A DNA stretch of 35,543 nucleotides from UHGV virus genome UHGV-0085052; one strand, given 5' to 3'. This stretch comes from a virus. The notes below the pieces were generated by a model that saw nothing but the letters and a program-made list of their open reading frames with translations, was not told the DNA's origin and made no database searches. Shown piece by piece: positions 1 through 35,543 of the stretch; the first letter of the stretch is position 1, and every line of letters starts with the position of its first letter. A program made the position numbers and the translations under genes.

Positions 1-105
1 GCAATAAGCAGTGTCGTGAAACCACCTTCGGGGGGGTTTTTTGTATCTTCTTTTTCATTTCCGAAGATGCGTCCGAAGATGATTTTTCTCTGGACGCATC
101 ATCAT

Positions 106-516
106 TCATTTTCTCTGGCCACCAACTACGGGCACTACTTTAACTTTTCGGTCATATGCTGCTGTCTGTCGTGGGTTCTTATGCCCGGAAATTGCTTGCT
201 TCTCTTCCAGGCTGCCTTCCAGATCAGAGATACCTTTTGCTTTCAGATCATGAAATGTGAAGTCTATTTGCAGATGAGGATATTTTTCCTGTGCTGCCGC
301 TTTGACATCACGCCAACGAGAGTTAAAACCATCACGGGTGTACTTGCCTCCGGTAGTTTGATGAATCACAAACAGGCTACTGATTCCCGGTTTTAATGGC
401 AGAGAACGAGCCAGAGCTATCGCTTTCTGCAGACGAGGCGACCAGGCTTTGATTTGCTTAACGCCGGTTTCACCACAACCGGGAGCGCACTCCGCCATTT
501 CAAAATTTAACGACAA
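106..516 (-). pseudogene. Tyrosine integrase, C-terminal fragment only (N-terminal ~2/3 absent)
   Basis: 136-aa ORF resembling the C-terminal catalytic region of lambda-family integrases (FTFHDLKAKGIS...GHKNPRQTAAYDR). The track start is a TTG and an in-frame stop lies directly upstream, so no full-length int is encoded here. Confidence 0.55.
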
Positions 517-573
517 AGCTCAAAGTTGAGTCGATGAAGTGCGCTCTCGTGTTGTAGCCAGGACTCTTCCCTG

Positions 574-1011
574 GTGGTCACACCGTATCGCCTTGATGGT
601 GAATCAATCGCTCATACCTGGCTGTGGCTTGCACATTCCGGCTACGTACCAGGAATTTTTCAGAGAGCGTCTGAACTACTGGAGAGGGGTGATGGAGCAA
701 TGAAATACAAACGGTGGGTGCGTGCGGAAGTCGTAATCATCAAACAATGTGCAGGCAGCATGACAGTTGAACGTATAGGGCAGCTTATTGGCAGAACCGG
801 TGCAGCGGTACGCACAAAAGCGCGCGAGCTGAAAATCTGTATGTATCTGCGGGGTAATTATCACCAGTCAGCAAAATACTGCCAGGAGGATATCGAGCTG
901 GCAAGGGAATTACATCAGTCGGGTATTAATCGCCAGGATATCGCAGAAAAACTCGAAATGCCGATCGGAGCGGTGAATCAGTTTGTTTATTTTGAGCGGA
1001 GGATTTCATGA
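574..1011 (+). CDS. Hypothetical protein with two helix-turn-helix-like segments (possible DNA-binding regulator); real start may be the internal Met (MKYKRW...)
   Basis: ORF in the track; two segments (TVERIGQLIGRTGAAVRTKAREL and INRQDIAEKLEMPIGAVNQF) look HTH-like; no confident family match from memory. Confidence 0.3.
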   Translation: MVTPYRLDGESIAHTWLWLAHSGYVPGIFQRASELLERGDGAMKYKRWVRAEVVIIKQCAGSMTVERIGQLIGRTGAAVRTKARELKICMYLRGNYHQSAKYCQEDIELARELHQSGINRQDIAEKLEMPIGAVNQFVYFERRIS

Positions 1012-1232
1012 AAGAACTTTTTCTGGCATTTGTGCCCCGGTTTATTAATGACCAGATCGCACTGACTGATAATGGTGAACAATATGAAATTGCCTGCAGC
1101 ATGGTGGATGTGAATCCGGGCGAACGGTATGACGCGATGTGTGACCTGAAAATATTCACCTGGCTGGGTTGGGCCATTCCGTGTGGAGAACCAACAAATA
1201 TTCGCCCGTTTGAGAGCAGGGAGGCTGTATGA
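1008..1232 (+). CDS. Hypothetical small protein (74 aa), apparently translationally coupled to the upstream ORF
   Basis: Start overlaps the stop of the preceding ORF (ATGA); no recognisable domain. Confidence 0.3.
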   Translation: MKELFLAFVPRFINDQIALTDNGEQYEIACSMVDVNPGERYDAMCDLKIFTWLGWAIPCGEPTNIRPFESREAV

Positions 1233-1395
1233 GTGAATTGAAAATACGAATGAACCCAAGTCGCAAGGCGATCAAATTTGCGCACTGTGTCTTGCAGATG
1301 GCTGAAGGTGAATGTTATATAAAAGAGTGTCATGGATAACAAGGCACTCACTATCAATGATTATCTGTTAAAAAAGCAATCGACAAGGAGTTGAA

Positions 1396-1653
1396 ATGCA
1401 GACTCAATTAAAGGTTAAAGGCGGTTATAGTCATTTTTTCTTCGCCAATATTGAAGTCTCACAAAGAGAGTCAAATGGCGGTTTGGTTGTCGTTAGGGAT
1501 GTTAATATACCTATTACAACAACAACTCTCTCTCTGTTAGAGAATTACGCTGTAGGGCAGGTGTTGACGTTAGAACAAAAGAATGGCGATTTTTTTGATG
1601 TGTATTACGTTGGAACTGATGGGAATAACTTTCAGTTTTCAACGCACTGCTAA
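1396..1653 (+). CDS. Hypothetical protein (85 aa); its 3' region is duplicated at ~9850-9910
   Basis: ORF preceded by GGAG-like RBS (aaggagttgaaATG); followed by a strong hairpin; no family recognised. Confidence 0.35.
   Translation: MQTQLKVKGGYSHFFFANIEVSQRESNGGLVVVRDVNIPITTTTLSLLENYAVGQVLTLEQKNGDFFDVYYVGTDGNNFQFSTHC
1540..1600 (+). repeat. Direct repeat copy A (~60 bp, contains 26-bp exact core AGGTGTTGACGTTAGAACAAAAGAAT)
   Basis: Same core found again at ~9870-9895 with flanking near-identity (TTAGAGAATTA...GGG.AGGTGTTGACG...ATTTTTGA). Confidence 0.7.
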
Positions 1654-1658
1654 TTTAT

Positions 1659-1686
1659 CAAGGCCCTGTGAGCAGGGCCTTCGAAA
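1659..1686. terminator. GC-rich hairpin (AAGGCCCTG-TGAG-CAGGGCCTT), probable bidirectional terminator between convergent genes
   Basis: Perfect 9-bp stem seen directly, sitting between the 3' ends of ORF 1396-1653 (+) and ORF 1866-2789 (-). Confidence 0.45.
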
Positions 1687-1865
1687 GCCTACTAAAGTCT
1701 GTTTCATAGAGAGAGTTATTTGCGATTAAAAAGGTATTTGGTCACAACCAGCACGATAGAGAATACATCTTTCAAAGTACCGCCCATATAAAACAGTTAC
1801 ATATGCACTTGATGACTAAGCTGGCACCAGGTTAACACCAGGCGCCAGCTTGAAGGAGACTTCAG

Positions 1866-2789
1866 TTATTGGTTTCTGAGGAAAGCGATTCTTGAAAGGG
1901 TCATTTGCGTCTGGCAGTCGACCATTTTCTTGACTTCAGCATCTGTTCCCTGCATTGAAACTTTACCGCACATAGCATCCTTAGTTTTGATCCACTGGCG
2001 CTGAGAAGGCAGCAACTCTTTTTTCTTCGCCGGGGTTAACTTGCTCCAGACGGTATTCAAATCAGAGTCAGCATTTGCAAATGCCATTCGGGACTGATCA
2101 AGGCTTTCAGATTTTTGCGGCTGAAGTTGTGCCTGCCTCTCTTTTTGCTTCTCCGCCTCATACCTGGCCTGTTCCTGTGCCCTGAGTTGCACCTGTTGTT
2201 CCGCTTCAATTTGACTCTGTTGGGCATCCTTAGCCTGCTGGATTTTCTGCTGCTCAACGATCGGGTTGATAATGGAAAGCGATGTCAGTAAAGCGGCGCC
2301 CACTGATATCGGATTATCAGAAGAGGTTTTTACAAAAACGTTTTTCTGATCGTCGGTCGCCTGCACGGTGTAGGTGATACGTTTTGAAAAGGCGTTTGCG
2401 TTGTTCTCCAAAAACAGATTTTCCATTTGCTTATCGAGATTACGATTAAAATTCTTTCTGTAAGCATCAGAAAGCTGGATGTACTCGTTCGCAGGTAGAG
2501 TCATCGTCACGGTCCCTTCACAAGTTTTCATTGTGCTGCCCGTGTCACTTGATGTTGTGGAGATTTCAGAGATGGCTAGTTTGATCTTGTCCAATGTGCT
2601 TCGTTTGGTCTGATTAGTGACATCAGGGTATTTATCGACCTGTTCAGAGAGTCCTTCATAAGCAGATTTTTTTAATAAATCCATAAGTGCTGACTGGGTT
2701 ATTTCCGAAGAACAGCCGATCACATCTTTTTTGTTATCACAGCCTGTAAGGGCAATGGCGAGTAAGAGTACTGAGTATTTTAATCTCAT
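1866..2789 (-). CDS. Lipoprotein with C-terminal DUF1311/LprI-like domain
   Basis: N-terminal signal peptide with lipobox (LLAIALTGC); Gln/Glu-rich coiled-coil-like middle; C-terminal ADSDLN...W...QRQWIKTKDAMC...VDCQTQMTLSRI pattern resembling DUF1311. Confidence 0.55.
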   Translation of the reverse strand: MRLKYSVLLLAIALTGCDNKKDVIGCSSEITQSALMDLLKKSAYEGLSEQVDKYPDVTNQTKRSTLDKIKLAISEISTTSSDTGSTMKTCEGTVTMTLPANEYIQLSDAYRKNFNRNLDKQMENLFLENNANAFSKRITYTVQATDDQKNVFVKTSSDNPISVGAALLTSLSIINPIVEQQKIQQAKDAQQSQIEAEQQVQLRAQEQARYEAEKQKERQAQLQPQKSESLDQSRMAFANADSDLNTVWSKLTPAKKKELLPSQRQWIKTKDAMCGKVSMQGTDAEVKKMVDCQTQMTLSRIAFLRNQ

Positions 2790-3242
2790 GAATTCCCTTT
2801 AGAGTAAGGATTGGTTTTTAAGACGCGGTCTGTAATCAGTTCCGAGAGCTACAGTAAACAACGCTGAGCACTGAACGCATCACAGGCAAGGTAAAAGGTG
2901 ATATCGGCAAAGGCTGTGAAACCTTTAATTCAACAGATGGGAACGGTATGCACAGGATCCTGTAACGACGCTCCCAAAACCGGAAACCTGCAGGGCATGT
3001 TTTCGCTGCTGAACTTAATATACGAACCTGCACTATCATGAACATATTTTATATCGTTATACCCCGAGTGATTGTGCCCGGCAATGGATAGTGTCCTGGA
3101 GGAACTATTTCTACTGTAAAAGGTAGACATTTAATTTCAGTGTGGAATTATTCCCTGCTGTTAATAACCATGGCTGTATATGGCACCGAGTAGGCATTGA
3201 TTTTTTTTAAATTCAATTGCGTTATTAAAATTACTTCATTTT

Positions 3243-3803
3243 TTATTTTAAAGTACAGCCTGCCCGAAATGCACTGCTAATTTCAACATATTCCGCTCTG
3301 GCCGTACCTCTAAGTTTCTGAGACTCACGTTCAAAACTCGCCAAATCTTCCTTACATTTTGCCGAAGTAGACTGGAATCCTTTCCCGCACATCTGAAATG
3401 TGACTGTCGGATCCGCAAATCGGGTACGCTGGGCGTAAGCCTGGCAAACAGCGGATGCCCTCGCTTGTTTTTGTCGTGGGCTTAACGGGCGTGCTGGTGT
3501 AGCCTGTTCTGCCCTCTCCATTTTCAGGCGGTAGCAGCTTAAATTACGAGAGGCGATCACCTTTTTAATAGCCTGGGCGCGGCGATAATTTTCATTAAAT
3601 TCAGGATGAGATGATGGATTAAGGTTGAGCAATGGCTCTATATTATCTTCTGCTTGGCAAAGCTGTGAATCGGTGTACTGCGCAAGTTTTGCCGCCTCGA
3701 TTGCAGCCGGATCTGGTTGTGAATTTTTTGGGGTATGGCTTACACATCCGGACAGCGTAAATCCAGCGGTCAGTGCTAAGATGATTTTTGATATTCCGTT
3801 CAT
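3243..3803 (-). CDS. Cysteine-rich lipoprotein, unknown function
   Basis: Signal peptide plus lipobox (LTAGFTLSGC); 8 Cys; no family recognised. Confidence 0.45.
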   Translation of the reverse strand: MNGISKIILALTAGFTLSGCVSHTPKNSQPDPAAIEAAKLAQYTDSQLCQAEDNIEPLLNLNPSSHPEFNENYRRAQAIKKVIASRNLSCYRLKMERAEQATPARPLSPRQKQARASAVCQAYAQRTRFADPTVTFQMCGKGFQSTSAKCKEDLASFERESQKLRGTARAEYVEISSAFRAGCTLK

Positions 3804-3934
3804 TTTCTATTCCTGTTTCGATGTTTTGGTGGTGCACTTTCCCCACTCGGATAAGATTATGCATTCGGATTCGAGTGATGAGGCAACGCCATATAGGCGA
3901 TGGCAGCCAGCACGATGGTGATTAAAATATTTAA

Positions 3935-5170
3935 TCAGAATTTCCGTTCTTTCCAGCGTTTAACCAACGCGGCCATGTTCAGCGGCCATAATTTAGGCTC
4001 AATCACTTTGCCTTCAAACATCGCGCCGAGCTCAATACCTGGGGCAAAATGTACGGTCATTGTTTCAGGGTTGACGGCCATCAGCTCTGCGTCTAGTAAG
4101 TCGTGTATCGTTGGAGTCAACAACAGGCCATTATCAGCGCTAAAATTGCCTGAGGTAGCTGGCTCAATGTGCGCCGCTTGCAATCGTTCGCCGTTCTGCC
4201 AGCCAGTCACCGCGCAACGGCCAGCAAAATTATTCCATACCCATTCAACAAACTGCATATGCGCCGTCGCGTCGCGCTGCTCAACGATGCGCTGCGCGGT
4301 TCGGGTACTGTGGAGTTTGGCAGGTTGGCCAAGTGCGGGCGCGGGTTTCTCTTCCTCCACGACGACCACTACTTCCTGCGACATGATGATTGGATCATCG
4401 GCTACCAGTTCCGGAACAACGTCGGCCAGCTTCTCGGCTTCTCGGATGATTTGCTTTTCTTCCTGCTCATCCAGGTACCGCTGCACCAGTTCAATGGTCG
4501 TGGTGGCTTCATGCTGGTGTTTGTGGATATAAAGCTCAACATCACGACGCTGGCTGGCTGGAATGTGTTTTGCCAGAAAATCCTGTAGGACGCGATTATC
4601 CAGCTTTGTCGTAACTTTTGATGTCATGCTCACAGAATCATACCGTTTCGGTGTTTCCATCTGCGTTGATTGCAGGCCTGGTAATTCGGTGTTGATTTGA
4701 GCGGAAACCTTGCGCGGGATGATTGTCGGCGTAAATGCTGGCGTGCTGGCCTGGGACGTGCCACGGCGACGGGCATTCTCCCAAAGGGCTTCTGTTTCAG
4801 GGTTTTTGCGTGCGCCTGGCTTTTGCATAGGCATAGTGCGAATCAGCGCTTCCCAGCCCATATTGACCTTCTGTTTGGCCTCGCGGCGTTTATCGGCCAG
4901 CGTAGGTTTTGATGGTCGTTTTTTGGAGAGCGCTTTCTCTGGTTTTAATTTGATGCCGCGCGATAAACCATTTATCAGTGTTGGATGCACTGATAAGGCT
5001 TTGGCCAATTGCAAACCGTTTAAATTGCTGCCATCTGTATAAGCGTACATAAACAAATCCGCCCAGCCATCATGTTGAGGGGTCATACCCACGCTGGTTA
5101 AGGCTGCGCGAATCTCTTTTTTGCGAGCTTTGTCCAAGTTAAATTTTGGGGTTTTATTTCGCTTAGTCAT
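3935..5170 (-). CDS. HNH-type endonuclease domain protein (unknown N-terminal domain, basic low-complexity linker, C-terminal HNH)
   Basis: C-terminal motif CAVTGW...LQAAHIEP...NGLLLTPTIHDLLD matches the HNH nuclease pattern (Cys/His ligands plus conserved Asn). Confidence 0.55.
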   Translation of the reverse strand: MTKRNKTPKFNLDKARKKEIRAALTSVGMTPQHDGWADLFMYAYTDGSNLNGLQLAKALSVHPTLINGLSRGIKLKPEKALSKKRPSKPTLADKRREAKQKVNMGWEALIRTMPMQKPGARKNPETEALWENARRRGTSQASTPAFTPTIIPRKVSAQINTELPGLQSTQMETPKRYDSVSMTSKVTTKLDNRVLQDFLAKHIPASQRRDVELYIHKHQHEATTTIELVQRYLDEQEEKQIIREAEKLADVVPELVADDPIIMSQEVVVVVEEEKPAPALGQPAKLHSTRTAQRIVEQRDATAHMQFVEWVWNNFAGRCAVTGWQNGERLQAAHIEPATSGNFSADNGLLLTPTIHDLLDAELMAVNPETMTVHFAPGIELGAMFEGKVIEPKLWPLNMAALVKRWKERKF

Positions 5171-5250
5171 TTCAGTTCAGCACACTAATAATGGTAACCA
5201 TGACCGCAGCAAACACGATCCCCGAAATATTCATTACTGCCATATATTGG

Positions 5251-6108
<858 letters not shown>

Positions 6109-6298
6109 TCAATTGACAACTTATAGTTCCCACTAGTTAGCATTAAGATTTTTACAGAGAGGAATAATCAATGTCCGCTCTTGGCACAGAGTGGACGAAC
6201 AACTGAAGGTCCGCTGTGAGCGAAGTGCGGACTGTCTTTACCAGTCTTCCTGGCAGATGGCTTTGGACGCAGAAACGATTTCTAAACGCACGAACCCA

Positions 6299-7417
6299 TC
6301 ATTTTTTTGTAATACCAAATTTAATCAATGTTTTTTGTAAATCTTTAATTGATATCTCACCTGAATTACCGGTTTTGAAACTGGATTCAACTTCCTTACA
6401 TCGAATTATTTTCATAGTTCCAGAACTGGTAAGCTCAGTGTCAAATAAATAAAATGGGGCGCAAGGGCTATGTCTTCTATTATCGCGAAGAAGAAATTCG
6501 ATTGGTTCCTTTTTATGTTCATCGAAGCCTGGTCCAAAAATAACACCAGCTATCAATGGTGGGGCATGGTGATGTATACGTCCTGAATTATCATTAGACA
6601 ATGCAAAATTAAGCCTGCCAAAACTTTGCGTCAAATACCTTTTGGTGAGAAAAATTCTTTTTTCATCCTCATATTGCCAGAAGGTATTTTTCACTAAAAG
6701 AGTTTCTCTGATTGCAATATCATCCGTCAAAGCACTTTGAAGAACCGGTATATGTTTTTCATGGTTTCTATATTCAACGCTATCAATAGGGTAGTTAATA
6801 TATTCTTCTGAATAAATATTTCTCTTCAAAGGGATAATATTGTTTTGTGCATGGTAGATAATAACACAACCCTTGAAACCAGCTGCGTAATGTGCCCACA
6901 TCATTGGTTCTAAAGCATTGCTCGAAAATGAAACGCTAAAGACACCTACTCGCAATCCTTTGAGAACCCTCTCTCTAATGCCGCTGGAGCAAATAGATTC
7001 CAGTCGAGATATTGACTTATCTGAATCCTCGAGCACACCAAAATCAATTAAATCGACCTGTTTAATGTGTTGATTTAAAGCAGCCTTTACTTCAGAGTCG
7101 TATTTTGTGAAAACACTTTGAAGCCCTTCTATGGAGCCATCAATAGGAGAGCCTAAAAATATGCGACACAGTTGCTTTGCAAGCCTACCATCGCCCAAAT
7201 CCAGAAAGTCTTTTAAGTTTTTGACACCTAAAATCACCTCGCTTTCTAGAAGACTTTGCCAGAGATCAGGTCTATCCTCAAAGAAATAAGAAGTTTTCAA
7301 GTCATTAGGGTCATTTAGTTGCTCTGTAGACGAAAAATATAATTCGTTGTATCTGATGGCTTTTTCAAAGAAAAAATCCGGCCTGTAATATTTAAATAGA
7401 TACACACAACACCTCAA
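6299..7417 (-). CDS. DUF2971-like protein (372 aa), AT-rich gene
   Basis: N-terminal YLFKYYRPDFFFEKAIRYNELYFSSTEQLNDPND resembles the DUF2971 signature (kYr...LyfSsp..fNDP); codon usage is markedly AT-rich versus neighbours. Confidence 0.45.
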   Translation of the reverse strand: MRCCVYLFKYYRPDFFFEKAIRYNELYFSSTEQLNDPNDLKTSYFFEDRPDLWQSLLESEVILGVKNLKDFLDLGDGRLAKQLCRIFLGSPIDGSIEGLQSVFTKYDSEVKAALNQHIKQVDLIDFGVLEDSDKSISRLESICSSGIRERVLKGLRVGVFSVSFSSNALEPMMWAHYAAGFKGCVIIYHAQNNIIPLKRNIYSEEYINYPIDSVEYRNHEKHIPVLQSALTDDIAIRETLLVKNTFWQYEDEKRIFLTKRYLTQSFGRLNFALSNDNSGRIHHHAPPLIAGVIFGPGFDEHKKEPIEFLLRDNRRHSPCAPFYLFDTELTSSGTMKIIRCKEVESSFKTGNSGEISIKDLQKTLIKFGITKK

Positions 7418-7745
7418 AAAATATGGAAACCCCGATACAATTATTTATCACTTACAAACTACGATTATCAAATAAATACATCCAACGTAGTTCCAGTGTC
7501 ATTCGCAGAGATATCCTTATCTTTTATGATTAGAATGTAAAGCTTTGTGTGATGGTACAACTATGCATCCACAGTCTGCTCTTGCACAAAGCAGCCAGAA
7601 AAGGATTGGCAAATCCACCTGGAGCGAGAAGCGGACTTTCTTCTTGGTTCTGATGGCTCAGAAGTGGCAAGATTATTTGTGGCAATTCAAAACACATTTT
7701 TGACGAACTACGAATGAATGTTGCATCGGTTAAAGGTGATAAATA

Positions 7746-9599
7746 ATGAAGAACGAACGTTACCCGTTGGACTTGGCTATTTCGGTTCAGGACTTCAATA
7801 CGTCAGACTGGAAGGATTCAATTGCCCAAGCTACCCGCGAAGGATATTCGGCGATGTGGCAAGCGCTGTCGGATGCTGCGCGTGATGCCATTGAGCAAGG
7901 ACGAATTGAACACGGCAAGGTATTATGGTTGCTTGCAGATGCCTGTTCGATGATGCTTTCGCCGTCGAGTCCTAATGAACCCTTTAAGCCTTTTGCTGTC
8001 TTTCATGACCGCAGGTCAGTCGTCCCTGATGACATTTCTGATTCAGATATTCTGTTCTTTGCAGAGATCGTTGATGGGGTAGACAACGATTGGCTGAAGG
8101 CGCGACTCAGTGATTTGGTCTGGTTGAAGAGTAAGCCTCGTAACATCGAATTCGCTTTGAAGGCTATCGACGCTTACCGCAGCCTTCCACTAGACACTGA
8201 TACATGGATACATGGAGGGCGGGATTGTTGGTCTCGCGCCATAAGCTTGGCTCGAATGCTAAAAGGTGGTGCTGGAGATAGACTCCAGCAAATTGAGACG
8301 ACAATCGTTGCCGCGTTTCATGCGTCAATTCGAGACGACGGTTTTCTTGGGCTTTGGTTGGCCGACCTTCTAAAATCGAACCGCTTGGGGGGGGCACATC
8401 GAACGGATGTGTCAACGAAGCTAGAAGCGTTGGCCCGCGGGTTTGATGATGAAGGGGATTTGCATAAGGCGCGGGAGTATTTTTCTGCTGCTGCCGAGTG
8501 GTATAAGCTTATTCCTGACGAGGCCAAAGCTGCAGAAATGACAGTATTGGTAGCTGAAGGGTGGGTCAAAGAAGCCGTTGCGCGAGTTGCATCGGAAAGT
8601 CCTAGCCACATGGTGGCAGCGAGCTTTTACGAAAATGCCATTCAGATATACAGAACGATTCCTCGGGCCGAACGCTCTACACATCAGGTCGATGAGCGAA
8701 TTGCCGAGTTGCGAGTCCACCTAAACAATTCGGGAGAGAGAGCTATAGGAGAGATGGGGCTCATTCAAACTCCTGGAGTAGATCTCACTCAGGTTATCGA
8801 AAAGGCGAGGGAATCCGTCACCGGGAAATCTGCACAAAATGCGTTGCTCGCATTTGCGAACCTACATCGTGGCGTGAATGCAGAAGAACTGCGCAACAGT
8901 GCATTGGAAAGAATGCGTCAGCATCCCTTGCAATCACTGTTTGCCGTAACCGTGATGAGTCGCGATGGCAGGGTCATTGCCAAGCGCCCTGCGATGGGAC
9001 TCGGTGGAGAATTGACAGAGGACGACGAAATTGCAATTCGCGCCGAGATGATTCGTGACTATGGAATCTTAGTTAGTATTGTGGTTCAAGCCCACATCTG
9101 GCCAGCCCTTGAAGTACTTTTGCTTGAGCATCGTTTGCGCGAGAGCGATTTTATCGAGTTAGCTCGCCATTCACCCATTGTGCCAAAAGAGCGAGTTGGC
9201 CTTTTCGGCAAGGGACTTTTTGCAGGTTACGAACGTGATTTCGTTACCGCGCTTCATTTACTGATCCCTCAGATTGAGCACTTGGTGCGCGTGCATCTTA
9301 AGCAAGCAGGAACCAAAACCACTAACCTCGACAAGGATGGAATTGAGAACGAGAATGGTATGAGCACGTTGGTGGGTTTGCCAGAGGCCGAGCAAGTATT
9401 TGGTAAAGATCTCGTCTTTGAGTTCGAATCGTTGTTCTGTAACGCCTTTGGTCCAAATTTGCGGAACGAATTGGCTCATGGACTATTGGATGAGGATGGG
9501 TGCAATTCCCCTTTCGCTATTTATGCGTGGTGGCTAGCTTTAAGACTAACATTCAATACATGGTGGAACTCAGCAAATCCTATTTCTGAGCCTCAATAA
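7746..9599 (+). CDS. Large protein (617 aa) with C-terminal HEPN-like Rx4HG motif; candidate RNase/abortive-infection-type effector
   Basis: Mostly alpha-helical-looking sequence; C-terminal FGPNLRNELAHGLLDE contains an R-x4-H-G arrangement typical of HEPN active sites; contains a G8 homopolymer near 8387-8394. Confidence 0.4.
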   Translation: MKNERYPLDLAISVQDFNTSDWKDSIAQATREGYSAMWQALSDAARDAIEQGRIEHGKVLWLLADACSMMLSPSSPNEPFKPFAVFHDRRSVVPDDISDSDILFFAEIVDGVDNDWLKARLSDLVWLKSKPRNIEFALKAIDAYRSLPLDTDTWIHGGRDCWSRAISLARMLKGGAGDRLQQIETTIVAAFHASIRDDGFLGLWLADLLKSNRLGGAHRTDVSTKLEALARGFDDEGDLHKAREYFSAAAEWYKLIPDEAKAAEMTVLVAEGWVKEAVARVASESPSHMVAASFYENAIQIYRTIPRAERSTHQVDERIAELRVHLNNSGERAIGEMGLIQTPGVDLTQVIEKARESVTGKSAQNALLAFANLHRGVNAEELRNSALERMRQHPLQSLFAVTVMSRDGRVIAKRPAMGLGGELTEDDEIAIRAEMIRDYGILVSIVVQAHIWPALEVLLLEHRLRESDFIELARHSPIVPKERVGLFGKGLFAGYERDFVTALHLLIPQIEHLVRVHLKQAGTKTTNLDKDGIENENGMSTLVGLPEAEQVFGKDLVFEFESLFCNAFGPNLRNELAHGLLDEDGCNSPFAIYAWWLALRLTFNTWWNSANPISEPQ

Positions 9600-9847
9600 G
9601 GTAGCGACGAGCAAGCAGTGGCCTAGTAACCCCTCTGAAAAAGCGGCGTGTGCATAAGTAGAATTCTTTATTAACCTAAATGTAGGGGGGAGCTGTGTAT
9701 ACACTGCTCACCCCATTCAATCACACACCGCGATGTTTGTAGTGCCTGCTTCTGGCACAAAGTGGACTGTCAGATTAAATTCGGCTCCTCGCCATAGATG
9801 TGTCAGCTCATATCTTATCTAATACACACAATAATTCTCTCATTCTT

Positions 9848-9910
9848 AGAGAATTATTTTTTTAAGGGTAGGTGTTGACGTTAGAACAAAAGAATAGATA
9901 TTTTTGAAGC
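9848..9910 (+). repeat. Direct repeat copy B (partner of 1540-1600); looks like a remnant of the 3' end of a paralogue of ORF 1396-1653
   Basis: 26-bp exact identity with copy A plus flanking near-identity; not in an ORF here. Confidence 0.7.
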
Positions 9911-9989
9911 ATACAATATGACCTATAACCATAGGATGCATAAAAAAGCTTACGGTGTGGCCTTATAACTTAGCGCAAATAATTTACTA

Positions 9990-10017
9990 ACCCGCTTCGG
10001 CGGGTTTTCTTTTTTAT
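9990..10017 (+). terminator. Intrinsic terminator (CCCGC-TTCG-GCGGG followed by a T-run)
   Basis: Perfect GC stem with tetraloop and TTTTCTTTTTT tail, seen directly. Confidence 0.6.
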
Positions 10018-10049
10018 AGACTTCACGATGTGAAAACGAATAATAAATT

Positions 10050-10727
10050 GTGCAAATAATGCAGTTTTTATTATTCGAGGTAATTATGAAAACCTTCTAT
10101 GAGGACTGGCCTGAAACTTTCGTTAGCCGGTTAGATATGTTACGAGCTCTGGATGATCGCGGCTCGACCCGGAGGCTCTATCTTGAGCGGACCGGAGCAA
10201 TATTTGACGCTCTGGCAGAAGAGATACGTACAGCCGTTGCCGGGCATCCTGAAATCGACGCGAGTGAACTTGATATCGGGCCGCTGTATCGCTATTACAA
10301 ACGTGGAGAAAAGGGGGATCCGCTGGCTGATTTACTTATTGAGTTAGCTCCACCAACCTGTGAACGGGTTCGTATATCTCCTGAAGTGTACACAATCCCG
10401 TATCTGTTTTTTGCACTGTTGATAGCGCAAGGCGCTGACAACGATGCTCGCGATTTTTTCAATATGATGATGCGACCGTTGATCATCGCCTACCGTTTCA
10501 AACAACTGGCGCGTTACCTTGGCACTAAGGGCGGAGGACGACCACAGCACAGATTAAAAAGCGAAGCCATTGAACTGGCTGATCGTTTTTTTACTGAAAA
10601 CCCGACAGCGCCATTATCGCGTGGTGTGCAATACATATCCGGTATTTTTGTGGCGAAATACTCTGACCCACCTGCAGCGTCGACGATTAGAAAATGGTTA
10701 ATTTCAATTTACAGGAGTGATAAATAA
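10050..10727 (+). CDS. Hypothetical protein (moron); probable start at the internal ATG near 10086 (MKTFYEDW...)
   Basis: ORF with RBS-like GAGG before the internal ATG; preceded by a terminator and AT-rich promoter-like DNA and followed by a hairpin; no family recognised. Confidence 0.4.
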   Translation: MQIMQFLLFEVIMKTFYEDWPETFVSRLDMLRALDDRGSTRRLYLERTGAIFDALAEEIRTAVAGHPEIDASELDIGPLYRYYKRGEKGDPLADLLIELAPPTCERVRISPEVYTIPYLFFALLIAQGADNDARDFFNMMMRPLIIAYRFKQLARYLGTKGGGRPQHRLKSEAIELADRFFTENPTAPLSRGVQYISGIFVAKYSDPPAASTIRKWLISIYRSDK

Positions 10728-10878
10728 TGACCATAAACGGTTTAATCCCCTATAAAACCGTTTAATAAAATTCACGACGTGAATATAATTGTTCATTATT
10801 CCCTCATTGTATCTGGCGTTATGACAAATGCCATAAAATACTGTATAAATATACAGGTAATGGCGTTAGGGGGAAGAC

Positions 10879-11058
10879 ATGAATATTCAAGAATCTATAG
10901 GCGAACTACCGGAAACATGCCGAGCTGTTATCAAGCGTAAGGACGGACACATCGTTGGTGTGCGTGTTCTGACTGATGATGAACGGATTGCCAGCCTGAT
11001 GGCGTTTCTCGAGTTGGCAGAAATAGCTGGATATACTATTACACCCCCTGACGCGTAA
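10879..11058 (+). CDS. Small hypothetical ORF (59 aa, below the track cutoff)
   Basis: ATG preceded by GGGGGAAG RBS-like sequence; translation MNIQESIGELPETCRAVIKRKDGHIVGVRVLTDDERIASLMAFLELAEIAGYTITPPDA; located by eye. Confidence 0.2.
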   Translation: MNIQESIGELPETCRAVIKRKDGHIVGVRVLTDDERIASLMAFLELAEIAGYTITPPDA

Positions 11059-11135
11059 AACACGGTATAATATCGGTGCTGGATTGAACACCCGGCACCA
11101 TTTTCTGAACACTGCCGCGCCACCTGGAGTTAACC

Positions 11136-11732
11136 ATGGCGCAGCATTCATTTATCAGGGTATCCGGCGGTTCGCTAATACCCGCGACACCAGACACGCA
11201 ACGCTGGTTGACTGAACGAGTCAAACCAGGTGCTGTTGTGTATGCAGATTTCAAACAGGCGCGTAATCCCGCGTTTCATCGTAAATTTTTCTCACTTCTA
11301 AACCTGGGCTTTGATTACTGGCATCCGTCCGGAGGGGCTATTTCTCCTACGGAGCGCGAACTGGTCCATGGCTACGTTAAGTTACTGGCGTATTACGGTG
11401 GACACGGTGATGTCATGGCAGAGCTGGCTGATCAGTATCTTCTCGATGAGTCGGAAAAGCGCGCGGGGAATATCAGTGCGGTTAAGTCGTTCGAGGCGTT
11501 TCGCGCATGGGCGATTATGGAAGCTGGGTTTTATGACGTTCATCAGATGCCAGACGGCAGTTTGATGCGCGTACCTCGTTCAATCTCGTTTGCTGCGATG
11601 GACGATCTTGAGTTCGGTCAACTGTATTCAGCCGTTTTAGATGTGCTGTGGAATTATATTTTGTTCCGCACGTTTGCCTCTCAGGAGGCCGCTGAAAATG
11701 CTGCCGCGCAGCTGCTGGATTACACATCATGA
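11136..11732 (+). CDS. DUF1367-family lambdoid phage protein
   Basis: Sequence and position (immediately upstream of YbcO-like and Q-like genes) match the conserved DUF1367/YbcO/Q block of enterobacterial lambdoid prophages. Confidence 0.55.
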   Translation: MAQHSFIRVSGGSLIPATPDTQRWLTERVKPGAVVYADFKQARNPAFHRKFFSLLNLGFDYWHPSGGAISPTERELVHGYVKLLAYYGGHGDVMAELADQYLLDESEKRAGNISAVKSFEAFRAWAIMEAGFYDVHQMPDGSLMRVPRSISFAAMDDLEFGQLYSAVLDVLWNYILFRTFASQEAAENAAAQLLDYTS

Positions 11733-12022
11733 AAAAAATCGACCTGAGAAAAGCTGCACGTGGTCGCGCTTGTACTGTGCGTATCCCCGGTGTGTGCAAT
11801 CACAATCCTGAAACCAGCTTACTGGCTCATTATCGTCTCGCCGGAACGTGCGGCACAGCCATCAAACCTCACGATATGCAGGGCGCTATCGCCTGTAGTG
11901 CGTGTCACGATGCTATCGACGGACGTACAAAAACGGATTACGAGTACGACTCATTGTTGTTGATGCACGCTGAGGGAGTTTTAAGAACACTGGCTATCTG
12001 GCGCGATGAGGAGTTTATCTGA
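11729..12022 (+). CDS. YbcO-like (DUF1364) putative nuclease
   Basis: 97 aa, KAARGRACTVRIPGVCNHNPETSLLAHYRL with a Cys/His cluster resembling DLP12 YbcO; start overlaps the upstream stop. Confidence 0.55.
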   Translation: MKKIDLRKAARGRACTVRIPGVCNHNPETSLLAHYRLAGTCGTAIKPHDMQGAIACSACHDAIDGRTKTDYEYDSLLLMHAEGVLRTLAIWRDEEFI

Positions 12023-12693
12023 TGAGTAACGAGTATTTATTGGAATATACCCGCATAAAACTGCGCGCTGCATTACGGGATTTGTCTGGTGGTTCTAAGG
12101 GGCAACTGGAAGCATTGTGTGAGCACCCGCCAGCAGATAAAAACGCATACCCACGCAAACATATTCATCGTGTGCAACTGGAGGACCGGACCGTTGATGC
12201 TCTGGTTACGCCAGTTTATGCCCTGGAAAGTTTCAGCAGACGTCGTCCCGCGCCGCCGATGAATGATTTTGAATTCGCTGATTCATCGTGGCGCCGCGCC
12301 GTGAATTCGCTCGACGTTAGCCAGCAGGCGTGGTTGCGCTATTGCTACGGTGGTCACCTGGCGTTCAAACACCAAACAGCTATTTGTGAGGCTGTCTGGA
12401 TTCGCTATAAAGGACACATCCCCGCGTCAACTCAGAGAAAAGTAGCTAAGCGCCTGCTTTCGTTGGTATGGTTGTCCGTGCAGGCGGTTGCAGCAGCAAA
12501 TAAACGCGAGGATTTTAAGGAGATGGCTGGATCTGCGCTAGCTGGAATGTTGTCTGTTTCTCGTTCCACCTGGTGCGAAACATACTCCCCGCACTGGGAA
12601 GGAATGAAAGAGGCGGTGAGAGCACTTGATGAAGTGGCACTTTTTGCAACTTTGCATCATTATCAGAACCATTTAGACGACGTTTGCGTATAA
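12022..12693 (+). CDS. Late-gene antiterminator Q-like protein
   Basis: 223 aa; position directly upstream of a promoter/terminator pair and the lysis cassette; resembles the Q-family antiterminators of Gifsy/DLP12-type prophages. Confidence 0.55.
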   Translation: MSNEYLLEYTRIKLRAALRDLSGGSKGQLEALCEHPPADKNAYPRKHIHRVQLEDRTVDALVTPVYALESFSRRRPAPPMNDFEFADSSWRRAVNSLDVSQQAWLRYCYGGHLAFKHQTAICEAVWIRYKGHIPASTQRKVAKRLLSLVWLSVQAVAAANKREDFKEMAGSALAGMLSVSRSTWCETYSPHWEGMKEAVRALDEVALFATLHHYQNHLDDVCV

Positions 12694-12762
12694 TGCTTGC
12701 AAAACCGAACAAAATAGGCCATATTTAACGCTAATTTGGTATGTTGCCAAATTTCTAAGAAC
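12685..12762 (+). promoter_or_regulatory. Putative late promoter region (pR'-like, with TATAAT at ~12689-12694 and TTGCAA at ~12697-12702)
   Basis: Promoter-like hexamers between Q and the holin gene; exact -35/-10 pairing is uncertain. Confidence 0.3.
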
Positions 12763-12792
12763 CTCGCCACGGCGGGGTTTTGTCGTTTCTGA
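12763..12792 (+). terminator. tR'-like intrinsic terminator downstream of Q
   Basis: CCTCGC-CACG-GCGGGG stem followed by TTTTGTCGTTTCT, seen directly. Confidence 0.5.
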
Positions 12793-12805
12793 ATCAGGAA
12801 AAATC

Positions 12806-13189
12806 ATGTCTGAACCTCTAACCGCTGGCGTTGCTGCTGGCTCGGCGGGGGTGACGTTTGCTGCGTTATTTCCTGAGGCAACACCTGCAGTGATGATCTG
12901 TGCGCTGGCAGGCGCAGCTCTCTATGTGTTGTCGTCCGGGCAGCATCGATTCTGGAAGCAGGTTATTTTCGCACTCATTTCGTTTGTTGGCGGTGTGTAT
13001 TGCGCTGAGACAGCGTCAGCCATCATTACCGGTATTCTGAATGCGGTGCTGAGTCACCTGAACCCTCCCGTAACAGTAAAAGTCTCTCCCGCCATTGGTG
13101 CACTGGTTGCATCAGTAATCAGCGTTACATCACTGTTGCGGATCATGTCACAAGCTCGTTTATGGAAATCAGATAAGGGGATGAAATAA
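12806..13189 (+). CDS. Putative holin (multi-pass membrane protein)
   Basis: 127 aa with several hydrophobic helices, first gene of the lysis cassette, RBS GGAAAAATC before the ATG. Confidence 0.5.
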   Translation: MSEPLTAGVAAGSAGVTFAALFPEATPAVMICALAGAALYVLSSGQHRFWKQVIFALISFVGGVYCAETASAIITGILNAVLSHLNPPVTVKVSPAIGALVASVISVTSLLRIMSQARLWKSDKGMK

Positions 13190-13461
13190 TGACCCTGCAC
13201 TCTGTCCTCATCAATGCCAATGCAATTATCTGTCTGATGCTGGCACTACGGTTGATGTTTTTTCAAAAAACAGGCCGCTATCGTTTTTTTATCTCACTAA
13301 CTGCTTACCTCGCGATTCTGTCTGCTGCGTGGATAGCCCTACGAATTTTTTACGGGAAATATACACAGGTTGATCCCGCAGAGTTTTTTCTCAACCTCAC
13401 CATCTGTATTGCTGTCTGGCGGGCACGAGGAAATATTTCAAAAATAACAGGAGACAGGTAA
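13189..13461 (+). CDS. Second small membrane protein of the lysis cassette (holin/antiholin-like)
   Basis: 90 aa with 2-3 predicted TM helices; start overlaps the upstream stop (ATGA). Confidence 0.45.
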   Translation: MTLHSVLINANAIICLMLALRLMFFQKTGRYRFFISLTAYLAILSAAWIALRIFYGKYTQVDPAEFFLNLTICIAVWRARGNISKITGDR

Positions 13462-13940
13462 TGACCGATCCTAAATGGCTAATTGAGGCACGAAAAAATC
13501 TCGGCATTCGGGAAATGAAAGGGAAGCAACATGCTGCAGAAATTGTGCAGTACTGGAAAGATATCAAACGCGGCGGCATTAAGGATGATGAAACCCCGTG
13601 GTGCGCTGCCTTCACCGGAGCAATGCTGGAACGTGTAGGTATTCGCTCAACGCGTTTTGAGTCTGCGAATTCTTATCTCGATTGGGGTAATGAACTGAAG
13701 GAACCCGCCTATGGATGCATTGCTATTCTGTCTCGGTCTGGCGGTGGTCACGTTGGCTTTGTTGTCGGGAAAAATGCCGCCGGGGATTTAATGATTTTGG
13801 GTGGTAACCAGGCAGATGAAGTAAATATCAAAGCTTTTCCTCGTTCCCGCGTAACAGGCTACCGCTGGCCAGCAGGCCAAACTGATGTTCCACAATCACT
13901 TCCATTCGTGAATGCTGAGAAATCTATCTCAGAAGCGTAG
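13461..13940 (+). CDS. Endolysin, peptidase type (NlpC/P60- or CHAP-like)
   Basis: 159 aa; conserved Cys (ETPWCAAF) and His (GGGHVGFVV) resembling a cysteine-peptidase catalytic pair; position after the holins. Confidence 0.55.
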   Translation: MTDPKWLIEARKNLGIREMKGKQHAAEIVQYWKDIKRGGIKDDETPWCAAFTGAMLERVGIRSTRFESANSYLDWGNELKEPAYGCIAILSRSGGGHVGFVVGKNAAGDLMILGGNQADEVNIKAFPRSRVTGYRWPAGQTDVPQSLPFVNAEKSISEA

Positions 13941-13947
13941 GTAAAAC

Positions 13948-14142
13948 GTGAAAAAACTTCTCTTAGCTGTCGCGTTCTTCACGCTGGCAGGCTGCACACA
14001 TTCGACATACACCGAAGCGACTCGCGCTGACGACAGCAGTATTAAACACGTGACGATCGCGCCGGGTACGAAGACTACAACAGCGAACGGTGGTTGTATT
14101 GATTCAACCGGGGCAGTGGCTTCATGCCCCGTTGGAAAATAG
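13948..14142 (+). CDS. Small lipoprotein (possible Rz1/o-spanin-like or other lysis-associated lipoprotein)
   Basis: 64 aa with signal peptide and lipobox (FTLAGC); directly follows the endolysin; no partner i-spanin ORF found. Confidence 0.4.
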   Translation: MKKLLLAVAFFTLAGCTHSTYTEATRADDSSIKHVTIAPGTKTTTANGGCIDSTGAVASCPVGK

Positions 14143-14280: not shown

Positions 14281-14559
14281 ATGTCACAGTTTTTGTTCGT
14301 TGGTGGGCCTTTTCACGGTCGTGTTGAAGACATTTATTCTAATTCCGCTATTGAACCCGTAGGTAGCACGGAGTTAAGGGTTTCTGTGGAGGATGAGGTA
14401 GTAATTTATGAACGCTCCGATTTTAGTCGATGGAATGGACCGCATTATCGCGTTGCAGTTGCAAATGGCGCGAGTGAGTTAATTCCTCAGACTATCGACG
14501 AGATGAATTATCACACATCTAAAATTTCTCCTATTTCGAAAGTTACTAGCACTGACTAA
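14281..14559 (+). CDS. Hypothetical protein (92 aa)
   Basis: ORF with AGGAAAT RBS-like sequence upstream; no recognisable domain. Confidence 0.3.
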   Translation: MSQFLFVGGPFHGRVEDIYSNSAIEPVGSTELRVSVEDEVVIYERSDFSRWNGPHYRVAVANGASELIPQTIDEMNYHTSKISPISKVTSTD

Positions 14560-14897
14560 TAGCCCGGATAGTGACCTTCAAAGATGTGCACGGGATGTTT
14601 TGTACGAGCATATTCAGCAAGGATTTTGTTTGTTAAAGGTGTCTTGAGTGTTGTTGGCTCTTTTAATAGATCGATGGCATCAAGACGCCTTAGTGCATCG
14701 CCCTTCAGATAATTTATCGTAATGGTTGTGATTAAAAAATCACCGCAAAAACCACTGCAATGAATTTTCCAGCACGTATCGTGATTTGTCCATGTGGCAT
14801 CAGAGCCGCATACAGGGCAATTTTTTGATTCCTGCATACCAATAACCATAGAGCATTTCTCTTCATTGAATGTTCGAGTTAAAAGCATAGACGACAT
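14556..14897 (-). CDS. Cysteine-rich hypothetical protein (zinc-ribbon-like CPVCG...C..HC..FCG), antisense to the late operon
   Basis: 113-aa ORF convergent with the previous gene; Cys cluster suggests metal binding. Confidence 0.35.
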   Translation of the reverse strand: MSSMLLTRTFNEEKCSMVIGMQESKNCPVCGSDATWTNHDTCWKIHCSGFCGDFLITTITINYLKGDALRRLDAIDLLKEPTTLKTPLTNKILAEYARTKHPVHIFEGHYPGY

Positions 14898-35488: not shown

Positions 35489-35543
35489 ATTTAAAATCCC
35501 TCGGCGTTCGCGCTGTGCGGGTTCAAGTCCCGCTCCGGGTACC
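35489..35543 (+). tRNA. Partial tRNA: 3' ~55 nt of a tRNA-Leu (anticodon UAA, leuZ-like), anticodon loop through acceptor 3' strand; interpreted as prophage att core copy rather than a complete gene
   Basis: ATTTAAAATCCCTCGGCGTTCGCGCTGTGCGGGTTCAAGTCCCGCTCCGGGTACC matches the 3' part of enterobacterial tRNA-Leu(UAA) as remembered (long variable arm, GGTTCAAGTCC T-loop, ACC end). The upstream 30 nt is AT-rich and cannot form the 5' half. Confidence 0.6.

Follow-up and report, generated by a model that had tools for sequence, protein, structure and literature searches.

A probable mosaic of separately acquired defence-type cassettes in the accessory-gene slot of a defective Escherichia coli prophage

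CMoRE, also listed as PD-T4-3, is a single protein that restricts Tevenvirinae: its C-terminal domain senses 5-hydroxymethylcytosine (5hmC) or its glucosylated form (5ghmC) and its GIY-YIG domain cuts the DNA, giving a direct, non-abortive immunity that is active in a native host (PMC12923530; 10.1101/2024.12.20.629700). Proteins of the DUF2971 family have been described as ADP-ribosyltransferases (ARTs) resembling DarT, and one member of the family, Aristaios, has been validated as a defence in lactococci. The DUF4209, or C6orf70, family is a HEPN family predicted to be catalytically active and linked to restriction–modification (R-M) operons; the HEPN catalytic motif is defined as Rx4-6H, and the RNase PrrC (EcoprrI) is encoded between hsdS and hsdR within its own type I R-M locus (PMC3710099). 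Here we describe relatives of these proteins that lie together in UHGV virus genome UHGV-0085052, a stretch of 35,543 nt that was analysed as a whole and is referred to as the window. It represents an E. coli prophage, now defective, which has kept a cargo slot and its late genes. The accessory-gene slot spans ∼1233–9988, the position of the nin region of lambda, and we consider it likely to be a mosaic of independently acquired, mostly single-gene cassettes in a leuZ-integrated lambdoid prophage, rather than one system. It holds one characterised cassette (CMoRE), two catalogued candidates with good in silico support (a predicted HEPN RNase and a predicted transferase resembling DarT) and three uncharacterised genes.

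The window proteins were mapped by tblastn over 32 loci and searched, together with the DNA, against the profile libraries Pfam, PADLOC, NCBIfam, PHROG and Rfam; NCBIfam gave no match for any of the ten proteins searched. Full-length relatives of the prophage adjoin pgsA and the tRNA-Gly/Cys/Leu genes downstream of it. The annotated relatives (L001–L004) are those of CFSAN061769, E24377A, ETEC1738 (L003) and EC958 (L004), and L005–L011 are contigs. In the annotated relatives and the contigs with an identical island, the left part of the gene order runs from the integrase through recombination genes, cI/cro/ydaT, repO and dnaB to small genes, and the right part consists of a variable region, an open reading frame (ORF) of 213 aa, DUF1367, DUF1364, the antiterminator gene Q, lysis genes and late genes. 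A 74-aa ORF directly precedes the variable region in L001–L011, and in intact relatives the slot is preceded by the replication module and followed by the DUF1367–DUF1364–Q late-control module. In the window, the slot is delimited by the following features:

1008–1232, + strand: 74-aa backbone gene forming the left flank, 78–100 % identical in L001–L011, L021, L024, L029 and L030
9989–10006, + strand: intrinsic terminator at the right edge, homology with L003, L004, L029 and L030 restarting at 9989–9997
10086–10727, + strand: 213-aa backbone gene (phrog_5215) forming the right flank, followed by DUF1367, DUF1364 and Q

The terminator was taken as the right edge because all relatives resume homology there. 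Between the flanks, the window carries six genes, confirmed as ORFs with the predicted features:

1866–2789, − strand: lipoprotein with a C-terminal LprI/DUF1311 domain (Pfam PF07007, 5.9e-8; phrog_5094) and the lipobox LTGC
3243–3803, − strand: second lipoprotein, 186 aa, with the lipobox LSGC
3935–5170, − strand: 411-aa protein with an HNH_2 nuclease domain (Pfam PF13391, 2.6e-8)
5251–6087, − strand: PD-T4-3/CMoRE, a GIY-YIG type IV restriction endonuclease (PADLOC and PDB match)
6299–7565, − strand: DUF2971 cassette, consisting of the gene (6299–7405; longest ORF to 7417) and 160 nt upstream
7654–9743, + strand: PDC-S39 cassette, consisting of a HEPN-motif gene (7746–9599), 92 nt upstream and 144 nt downstream

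A preliminary description of this DNA, made from the sequence alone, had listed these genes as two lipoproteins and HNH, GIY-YIG, DUF2971-like and HEPN-motif proteins, which is how we find them, and had pointed to a base composition that shifts from gene to gene. The latter is borne out by GC contents from 0.36 (DUF2971) to 0.51 (HNH), against 0.48 for the whole window. It had further proposed a comparison of prophages at the same tRNA-Leu site to tell a variable cargo region from a block of ordinary early genes conserved in all relatives, and the comparison returned the former: the conserved flanks are common to the relatives, the genes enclosed by them differ, and there are at least five different cargo combinations among the 32 loci. 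L001, L002, L027 and L028 have the LprI lipoprotein, the 186-aa lipoprotein, HNH and CMoRE, and share 1717–6223 of the window, but carry three quite different genes in place of 6223–9751. L029 has CMoRE without LprI, the second lipoprotein or HNH, whilst L004, L021 and L030 have LprI without its window neighbours and alongside other cargo. In ETEC1738 the slot holds the 85-aa ORF, with an IS3 element and a DUF262 gene set behind it. The slot is enriched in defence-type genes: PADLOC matches in the window are PD-T4-3, PDC-S39 and PDC-S31, and those in relatives are NsnA/PD-T4-2_A-like DUF262 proteins, a capP-like ImmA/IrrE protease and PDC-S05-like proteins; the cargo of relatives further contains an Aga-REase-like protein. 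The reading of 1540–9910 as a defence island thus stands in so far as a variable, defence-enriched slot does exist at nearly those coordinates, and fails in that the slot is neither one island nor bounded by the direct repeat considered below. As a separate observation, the capP-like protease recurs in the slot together with a 201-aa partner in seven relatives (including L004, at 9202–10305, L021, L022, L023, L029 and L032), and the two may form a cargo module that no PADLOC model recognises as a system.

The gene at 5251–6087 encodes a known protein. It matches PADLOC PD-T4-3 (PDLC04031) with an E-value of 6.5e-138 over profile positions 1–254 of 256, and PDB 9U7U (chain 9u7u_A) with an E-value of 5.5e-164 over residues 11–268, being ∼95 % identical to the crystallised protein; RefSeq and contig annotations give CMoRE as 268 aa. 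The GIYxY-YIG motif (GWYVY...FYVG) and the acidic autoinhibitory loop (VDDDDELL) are both present as defined in PMC12923530. The window protein has these and the C-terminal sensing domain in common with PD-T4-3/CMoRE (PDB 9U7U and 9U75), from which it departs by one additional Asp in the acidic loop and ∼14 substitutions, and otherwise in nothing of substance. It is accordingly the already characterised nuclease, and its specificity for 5hmC/5ghmC DNA is predicted from the activity of ∼95 % identical proteins. A pairing of HNH with CMoRE was considered and rejected, as CMoRE occurs alone in L029.

The DUF2971 protein matches its Pfam family (PF11185) with 26.7 bits against a cut-off of 22, and PADLOC PDC-S31 (PDLC04990) with an E-value of 6.2e-20 over residues 155–311 only; as this model match is partial, membership in the PDC-S31 subfamily is uncertain. 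Its predicted fold is closest to DarT and contains an ART fold with the conserved Tyr and ExE motifs, the YExE being invariant among homologues, so that we regard it as a predicted DarT-like ADP-ribosyltransferase. No match to a DarG macrodomain antitoxin was found beside the gene with Pfam or PADLOC, its neighbours being CMoRE and PDC-S39, and it does not form part of a DarTG system. Compared with DarT, Aristaios and PDC-S31, the window protein thus differs in having no adjacent DarG, in its large helical inserts and in the partial model match. Upon infection it would modify nucleic acid (or protein) by ADP-ribosylation and, with no separate antitoxin, it would have to be self-inhibited. Homologues are solitary genes in a Serratia island and in a Pantoea integrative and conjugative element (ICE), and DNA homology to Serratia covers exactly 6299–7565.

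The 617-aa product of 7746–9599 consists of DUF7380 (Pfam PF24098, 2.4e-49), a helical repeat region and a C-terminal DUF4209 (HEPN) domain (PF13910, 6.3e-20) with the motif R-N-E-L-A-H, and matches PADLOC PDC-S39 (PDLC05012) at full length (3.9e-265, residues 1–612). Residues R573, N574, A577, H578 and G579 do not vary among 27 homologues of 74–94 % identity, in agreement with the HEPN Rx4-6H motif. Homologues (P0003–P0120) with 75–94 % identity occur across gamma-, beta- and alpha-proteobacteria, namely in Yersinia, Dickeya, Achromobacter, Methylococcus and Ochrobactrum, which points to a recent and wide horizontal spread of one conserved cassette. In a Dickeya ICE, where the homologue is a solitary gene, DNA identity of 88 % covers exactly 7654–9743; in Achromobacter the homologue adjoins HEPN_AbiU2. 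The 5′ end of the PDC-S39 gene, used as an exact pattern, had no match among GTDB species representatives.

In an E. coli Tn7-like element (L018–L020, 6001–7911) an 84 %-identical homologue (P0011) forms part of a BrxR-hsdM-hsdS-X-hsdR operon, where it sits between hsdS and hsdR with start and stop codons overlapping those of its neighbours. This is the same hsdM-hsdS-X-hsdR position that PrrC occupies in EcoprrI, and the C-terminal HEPN RNase motif is likewise common to both. The window protein differs from PrrC in that it has no ABC-ATPase domain, its N-terminus being made up of DUF7380 and helical repeats. With PADLOC PDC-S39 and the DUF4209/C6orf70 (ERMARD-type) family it shares the full-length model match, the DUF7380 and DUF4209 domains, the invariant Rx4H and the family link to R-M, and it differs in standing alone in a prophage rather than in an R-M operon. 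No R-M genes are present in the slot, so that the window protein has no R-M partner and does not itself belong to the PrrC type. A more speculative and rather unlikely reading makes PDC-S39 a second-line RNase of the PrrC kind, which would guard type I restriction systems besides working alone. As a mechanism we propose that it would be a latent HEPN endoribonuclease whose N-terminal two-thirds sense infection, and that cleavage of host or phage RNA would then abort that infection.

The two candidate genes make up a 3.5-kb segment that is specific to the lineage of the window. No megablast match to 6200–9760 was found in 5426 complete RefSeq E. coli genomes, and the 'distant' mode gave only weak DUF2971 matches; the exact 617-aa protein is nevertheless contained in 978 collection blocks of an exact-protein index, where all contexts that were read have the same gene block. 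The segment is common in a heavily sampled lineage that is unrepresented among complete genomes, and the DNA homology limits divide it into two independent cassettes placed back to back (6299–7565 and 7654–9743). These limits bear on the alternative that the HNH, GIY-YIG, DUF2971 and HEPN genes act jointly as a single multi-component defence system. The genes are adjacent, four genes lie on the same strand with short gaps, and multi-gene defence systems are frequent. Set against this, DNA homology to other elements stops at separate cassette limits, CMoRE works as a single gene, homologues of PDC-S39 and DUF2971 stand alone in unrelated elements, where they have no neighbour in common, and those of HNH have other neighbours. 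Moreover, DUF2971 and PDC-S39 are transcribed divergently, and GC contents differ (0.36 versus 0.50). We therefore judge a joint system very unlikely. The suggestion that this would be the place of an uncharacterised anti-phage system is not upheld either, as the GIY-YIG protein is the known CMoRE/PD-T4-3, the HEPN and DUF2971 proteins are catalogued single-gene candidates, and the genes are separable.

A second line of argument concerns a direct repeat near both ends of the slot, with an exact 26-mer, AGGTGTTGACGTTAGAACAAAAGAAT, at 1559–1584 and 9870–9895, where none would be expected (100 shuffles). The preliminary description had reported this repeat with similar flanks, one copy within the ORF 1396–1653 and the other in non-coding DNA, and we can confirm it; similarity in fact extends over ∼90 nt (∼1508–1594 versus 9816–9905) at ∼80 % identity with a 2-nt indel.

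1396–1653, + strand: 85-aa ORF containing the left repeat copy (1508–1594), with a hairpin (1659–1682) behind the ORF
9816–9905, + strand: right repeat copy, a decayed 3′-end relic of a gene of the 85-aa-ORF type, frame-shifted and interrupted by stop codons

The ORF at 1396–1653 is intact, with 85 codons, and its 3′ part forms the left copy. ETEC1738 carries this ORF under the accession WP_033814620, and 4 of 5426 complete genomes have it at full length; it has no family match in Pfam, PADLOC, NCBIfam or PHROG. Around the right copy, between 9599 and 10050, there are no ORFs of ≥ 50 aa. The two copies are the remains of two paralogous cassettes, one intact and one decayed, both inside the slot. 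It had been proposed instead that the repeat brackets one 8.3-kb island, and an inserted mobile island with the direct repeats as a duplicated target or att sites would account for a significant repeat with an exact 26-nt core on either side of the block, as well as for the identical six-gene block in many assemblies. Relatives contradict this on several counts. Some, such as E24377A, keep the right copy but have the place of the window's 85-aa ORF taken by an ORF6N gene, and ETEC1738 has two copies at still other positions. EC958 has one longer copy (L004 8935–9186, a 55-codon tblastn match) that can be written as an upstream part, core and downstream part (U-core-D); in the window, the right copy consists of U and core and the left copy of core and D, D including the hairpin at 1659–1682, which is the reverse of the arrangement that an insertion would leave. 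In addition, content is not present or absent together with the repeat copies, whose positions and numbers differ in ETEC1738 and EC958: 1717–6223 is shared by relatives in which 6223–9751 is replaced, and CMoRE and LprI are found separately elsewhere. Nor does the block contain a recombinase gene detectable with Pfam or PHROG. The single mobile island is therefore largely refuted, and we give it next to no credence. A site-specific att function of the repeat was rejected for the same reasons, namely the flanks arranged the wrong way round and the disagreement amongst relatives. We also dropped the idea that the repeat core contains a promoter (TTGACG-N18-TATTTT, 9875–9904), as a 9/12 consensus match occurs at chance frequency in the region. 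Over 1–14000, Rfam gave nothing at an E-value of ≤ 1, placing the repeat and the hairpins in no curated RNA family.

If the slot is a mosaic of cassettes, as we favour, these would be exchanged through homologous recombination at short stretches of conserved sequence, including GC-rich hairpins of ∼24 nt. Such hairpins exactly bound the 3.5-kb lineage-specific segment at both ends. They have the consensus GTCCGCTyyTGGCACrrAGCGGAC, occur singly or as ∼60-nt tandem units and are often in tandem with GTCCGCTGTGAGCGAnnAGCGGAC.

6174–6232, + strand: two GC-rich hairpins in tandem (H1+H2), forming the left edge, where homology with L001 and L029 stops (6223–6232)
9745–9767, + strand: single H1-type hairpin at the right edge, ahead of the right repeat copy
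L001 15127–15184, 16835–16891 and 18027–18090: hairpin copies in a relative
L029 4708–4765, 5928–5991, 6827–6890 and 7750–7772: hairpin copies in a relative
L033–L035, near 7000: hairpin copies in other E. coli islands

In relatives, the units separate successive cargo genes and are always in the same orientation. Related copies are found in 1482 of the 5426 complete genomes; three that were inspected are situated in the variable portion of islands with a GTPase gene (two of the three also with an Ag43 gene) and adjoin DUF2971, GNAT, dynamin-like and reverse-transcriptase genes. Homology breakpoints fall ≤ 30 nt from a hairpin in 12 of 54 cases, compared with 1.9 expected, a count in which breakpoints from related loci are not independent. 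We regard hairpins at sites of cassette exchange as a lead and not as a finding. Rather tentatively, they might be portable junction elements that serve as homology arms for Red/RecT-type or host recombination, by which defence cassettes are swapped in an integron-like array with no integrase, and perhaps they also act as insulating terminators. On this reading, which we consider rather unlikely, cassettes would pass between unrelated mobile elements; near-identical copies in one orientation separate the cargo genes both of this prophage slot and of the variable part of CP4-like islands.

The remaining cargo genes are those for HNH and the two lipoproteins. The 411-aa protein has a basic, low-complexity N-terminal region of ∼280 aa and a C-terminal HNH core that is invariant among homologues, of which there are just 14 in 5.8 billion proteins. 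Its weak PDB match, 6yex ('HNH endonuclease', E-value 0.12), is not significant; we take 6YEX to be VcaM4I, an EVE-HNH enzyme. The C-terminal HNH_2-type nuclease core resembles that of type IV HNH enzymes in which a sensor is fused to HNH, whereas no EVE, SRA or PUA sensor is recognisable in the basic N-terminus of the window protein. In all of the 32 loci that have either, the 186-aa lipoprotein and HNH occur together; no conserved partner of HNH is shared between the neighbourhoods of a 60 % homologue and a distant homologue. The 186-aa lipoprotein has no family match in Pfam, PADLOC, NCBIfam or PHROG. As a best guess, HNH_2 with the downstream 186-aa lipoprotein, and the LprI lipoprotein, might provide a nuclease-based restriction function and either exclusion at the envelope or protection against lysozyme.

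Selfish HNH nucleases are frequent in phages, and a third explanation would hold that, CMoRE excepted, the cargo consists of ordinary accessory or selfish genes with no anti-phage role, such as a homing-type HNH, lipoproteins of lysis or lysogenic conversion, and decaying toxins. Several observations, some of them favourable to this explanation, weigh against our own reading. The HNH protein could be a nuclease of the homing type or one that serves phage maintenance; its PADLOC match is weak, the lipoproteins are matched by no PADLOC model, and the PHROG families of the non-CMoRE genes are all of 'unknown function'. PDC-S39 and PDC-S31 are computational candidates for which no validation was found in the literature searched, and in a published study two other PADLOC candidates were inactive in a natural isolate, their native host. 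As regards the exchange of cassettes, 42 of the 54 homology breakpoints lie away from hairpins. Covariation in the hairpins was not significant, and an explicit two-hairpin structure was 82 % paired, no better than shuffles; RNAalifold picked cross-pairing between the two units of the tandem. Given this null result, the hairpins are taken as conserved palindromic sequence and not as proven structure. Conversely, catalytic motifs are invariant across homologues of PDC-S39, DUF2971 and HNH, which argues against decay, relatives carry other defence-type genes in the same slot, a homologue of PDC-S39 is part of a type I R-M operon and one DUF2971 protein is validated as a defence. On balance we find it unlikely that the cargo lacks an anti-phage role, and prefer a mosaic of separately acquired, mostly single-gene cassettes in a defence-enriched slot.

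The early region of the prophage has been lost from the window, as is seen from alignment with ETEC1738 (L003).

106–516, − strand: integrase remnant, C-terminal 136 codons only, with PHROG integrase matches
∼469–470: deletion junction 1, where window 1–470 (L003 885–1354) is followed by a jump to L003 6255
638–645: deletion junction 2, where window 469–644 corresponds to L003 6255–6430 and 638–2000 to L003 11399–12785
35489–35543, + strand: 55-nt att-like repeat, a 100 % match to L006 2175–2229, directly left of the window start

Deletion 1 (L003 1354–6255, ∼4.9 kb) took the integrase N-terminus together with the excision and recombination genes, and deletion 2 (L003 6430–11399, ∼5.0 kb) took cI, cro, ydaT, repO and dnaB; junction 2 comes out alike in the comparison with L001, and the early region is likewise missing from contig L006, which is 99.99 % identical to the window. 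It is these two ∼5-kb deletions that account for a window without an early region. The cargo genes had been thought to occupy the place where the early region would normally sit; in full-length relatives, however, the repressor and replication genes are retained and the cargo follows downstream of them, before Q, so that the island does not replace the early region. The 55-nt direct repeat at the prophage ends probably represents attL and attR, 35489–35543 being the attR half, and its presence at both ends indicates that the window is essentially one whole prophage. We infer that it overlaps the 3′ end of tRNA-Leu; a tRNA search over the 35,543 nt found no tRNA gene within the window. Two further observations concern the annotation of this prophage. 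The ORF at 574–1011 is an artefactual extension across junction 2, where the gene called in a near-identical contig is 700–1011. At 14556–14897 (− strand) there is an ORF whose L006 counterpart has a weak Pfam match to Lar (restriction alleviation, PF14354), and the prophage may thus carry an anti-restriction gene besides its defence genes.

These results describe a decayed prophage in which anti-phage genes are still stacked, consistent with remnants being kept for immunity. They also supply a natural context for two catalogued candidate defences, the DUF7380–DUF4209 HEPN protein and the DarT-like DUF2971 protein. The eukaryotic ERMARD/C6orf70 HEPN proteins have their bacterial relative in the DUF4209 family, which a phenotype for PDC-S39 would open to experiment for the first time. 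Should the hairpin elements be functional, they would contribute to an explanation of how defence genes move between the hotspots of different mobile elements.

Amongst known systems, the slot is best compared with the hotspots of P2 and P4 (Rousset et al., 2022; PMC9122126), with lambdoid systems (Vassallo et al., 2022) and with the nin region and morons of lambda, all of which have in common with it a fixed position and variable anti-phage genes. This particular hotspot was not found described in a literature search that was not exhaustive. It differs from those of P2/P4 in belonging to another phage family (leuZ-integrated, with lambda-like head genes and Q) and in its position, between the replication and Q modules. 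Like the cargo of known prophage hotspots, that of the slot brings its own regulatory DNA and is often antisense to phage transcription. With its conserved flanks and variable, defence-enriched content, the slot thus represents an ordinary case of a defence hotspot of known type, and no new system.

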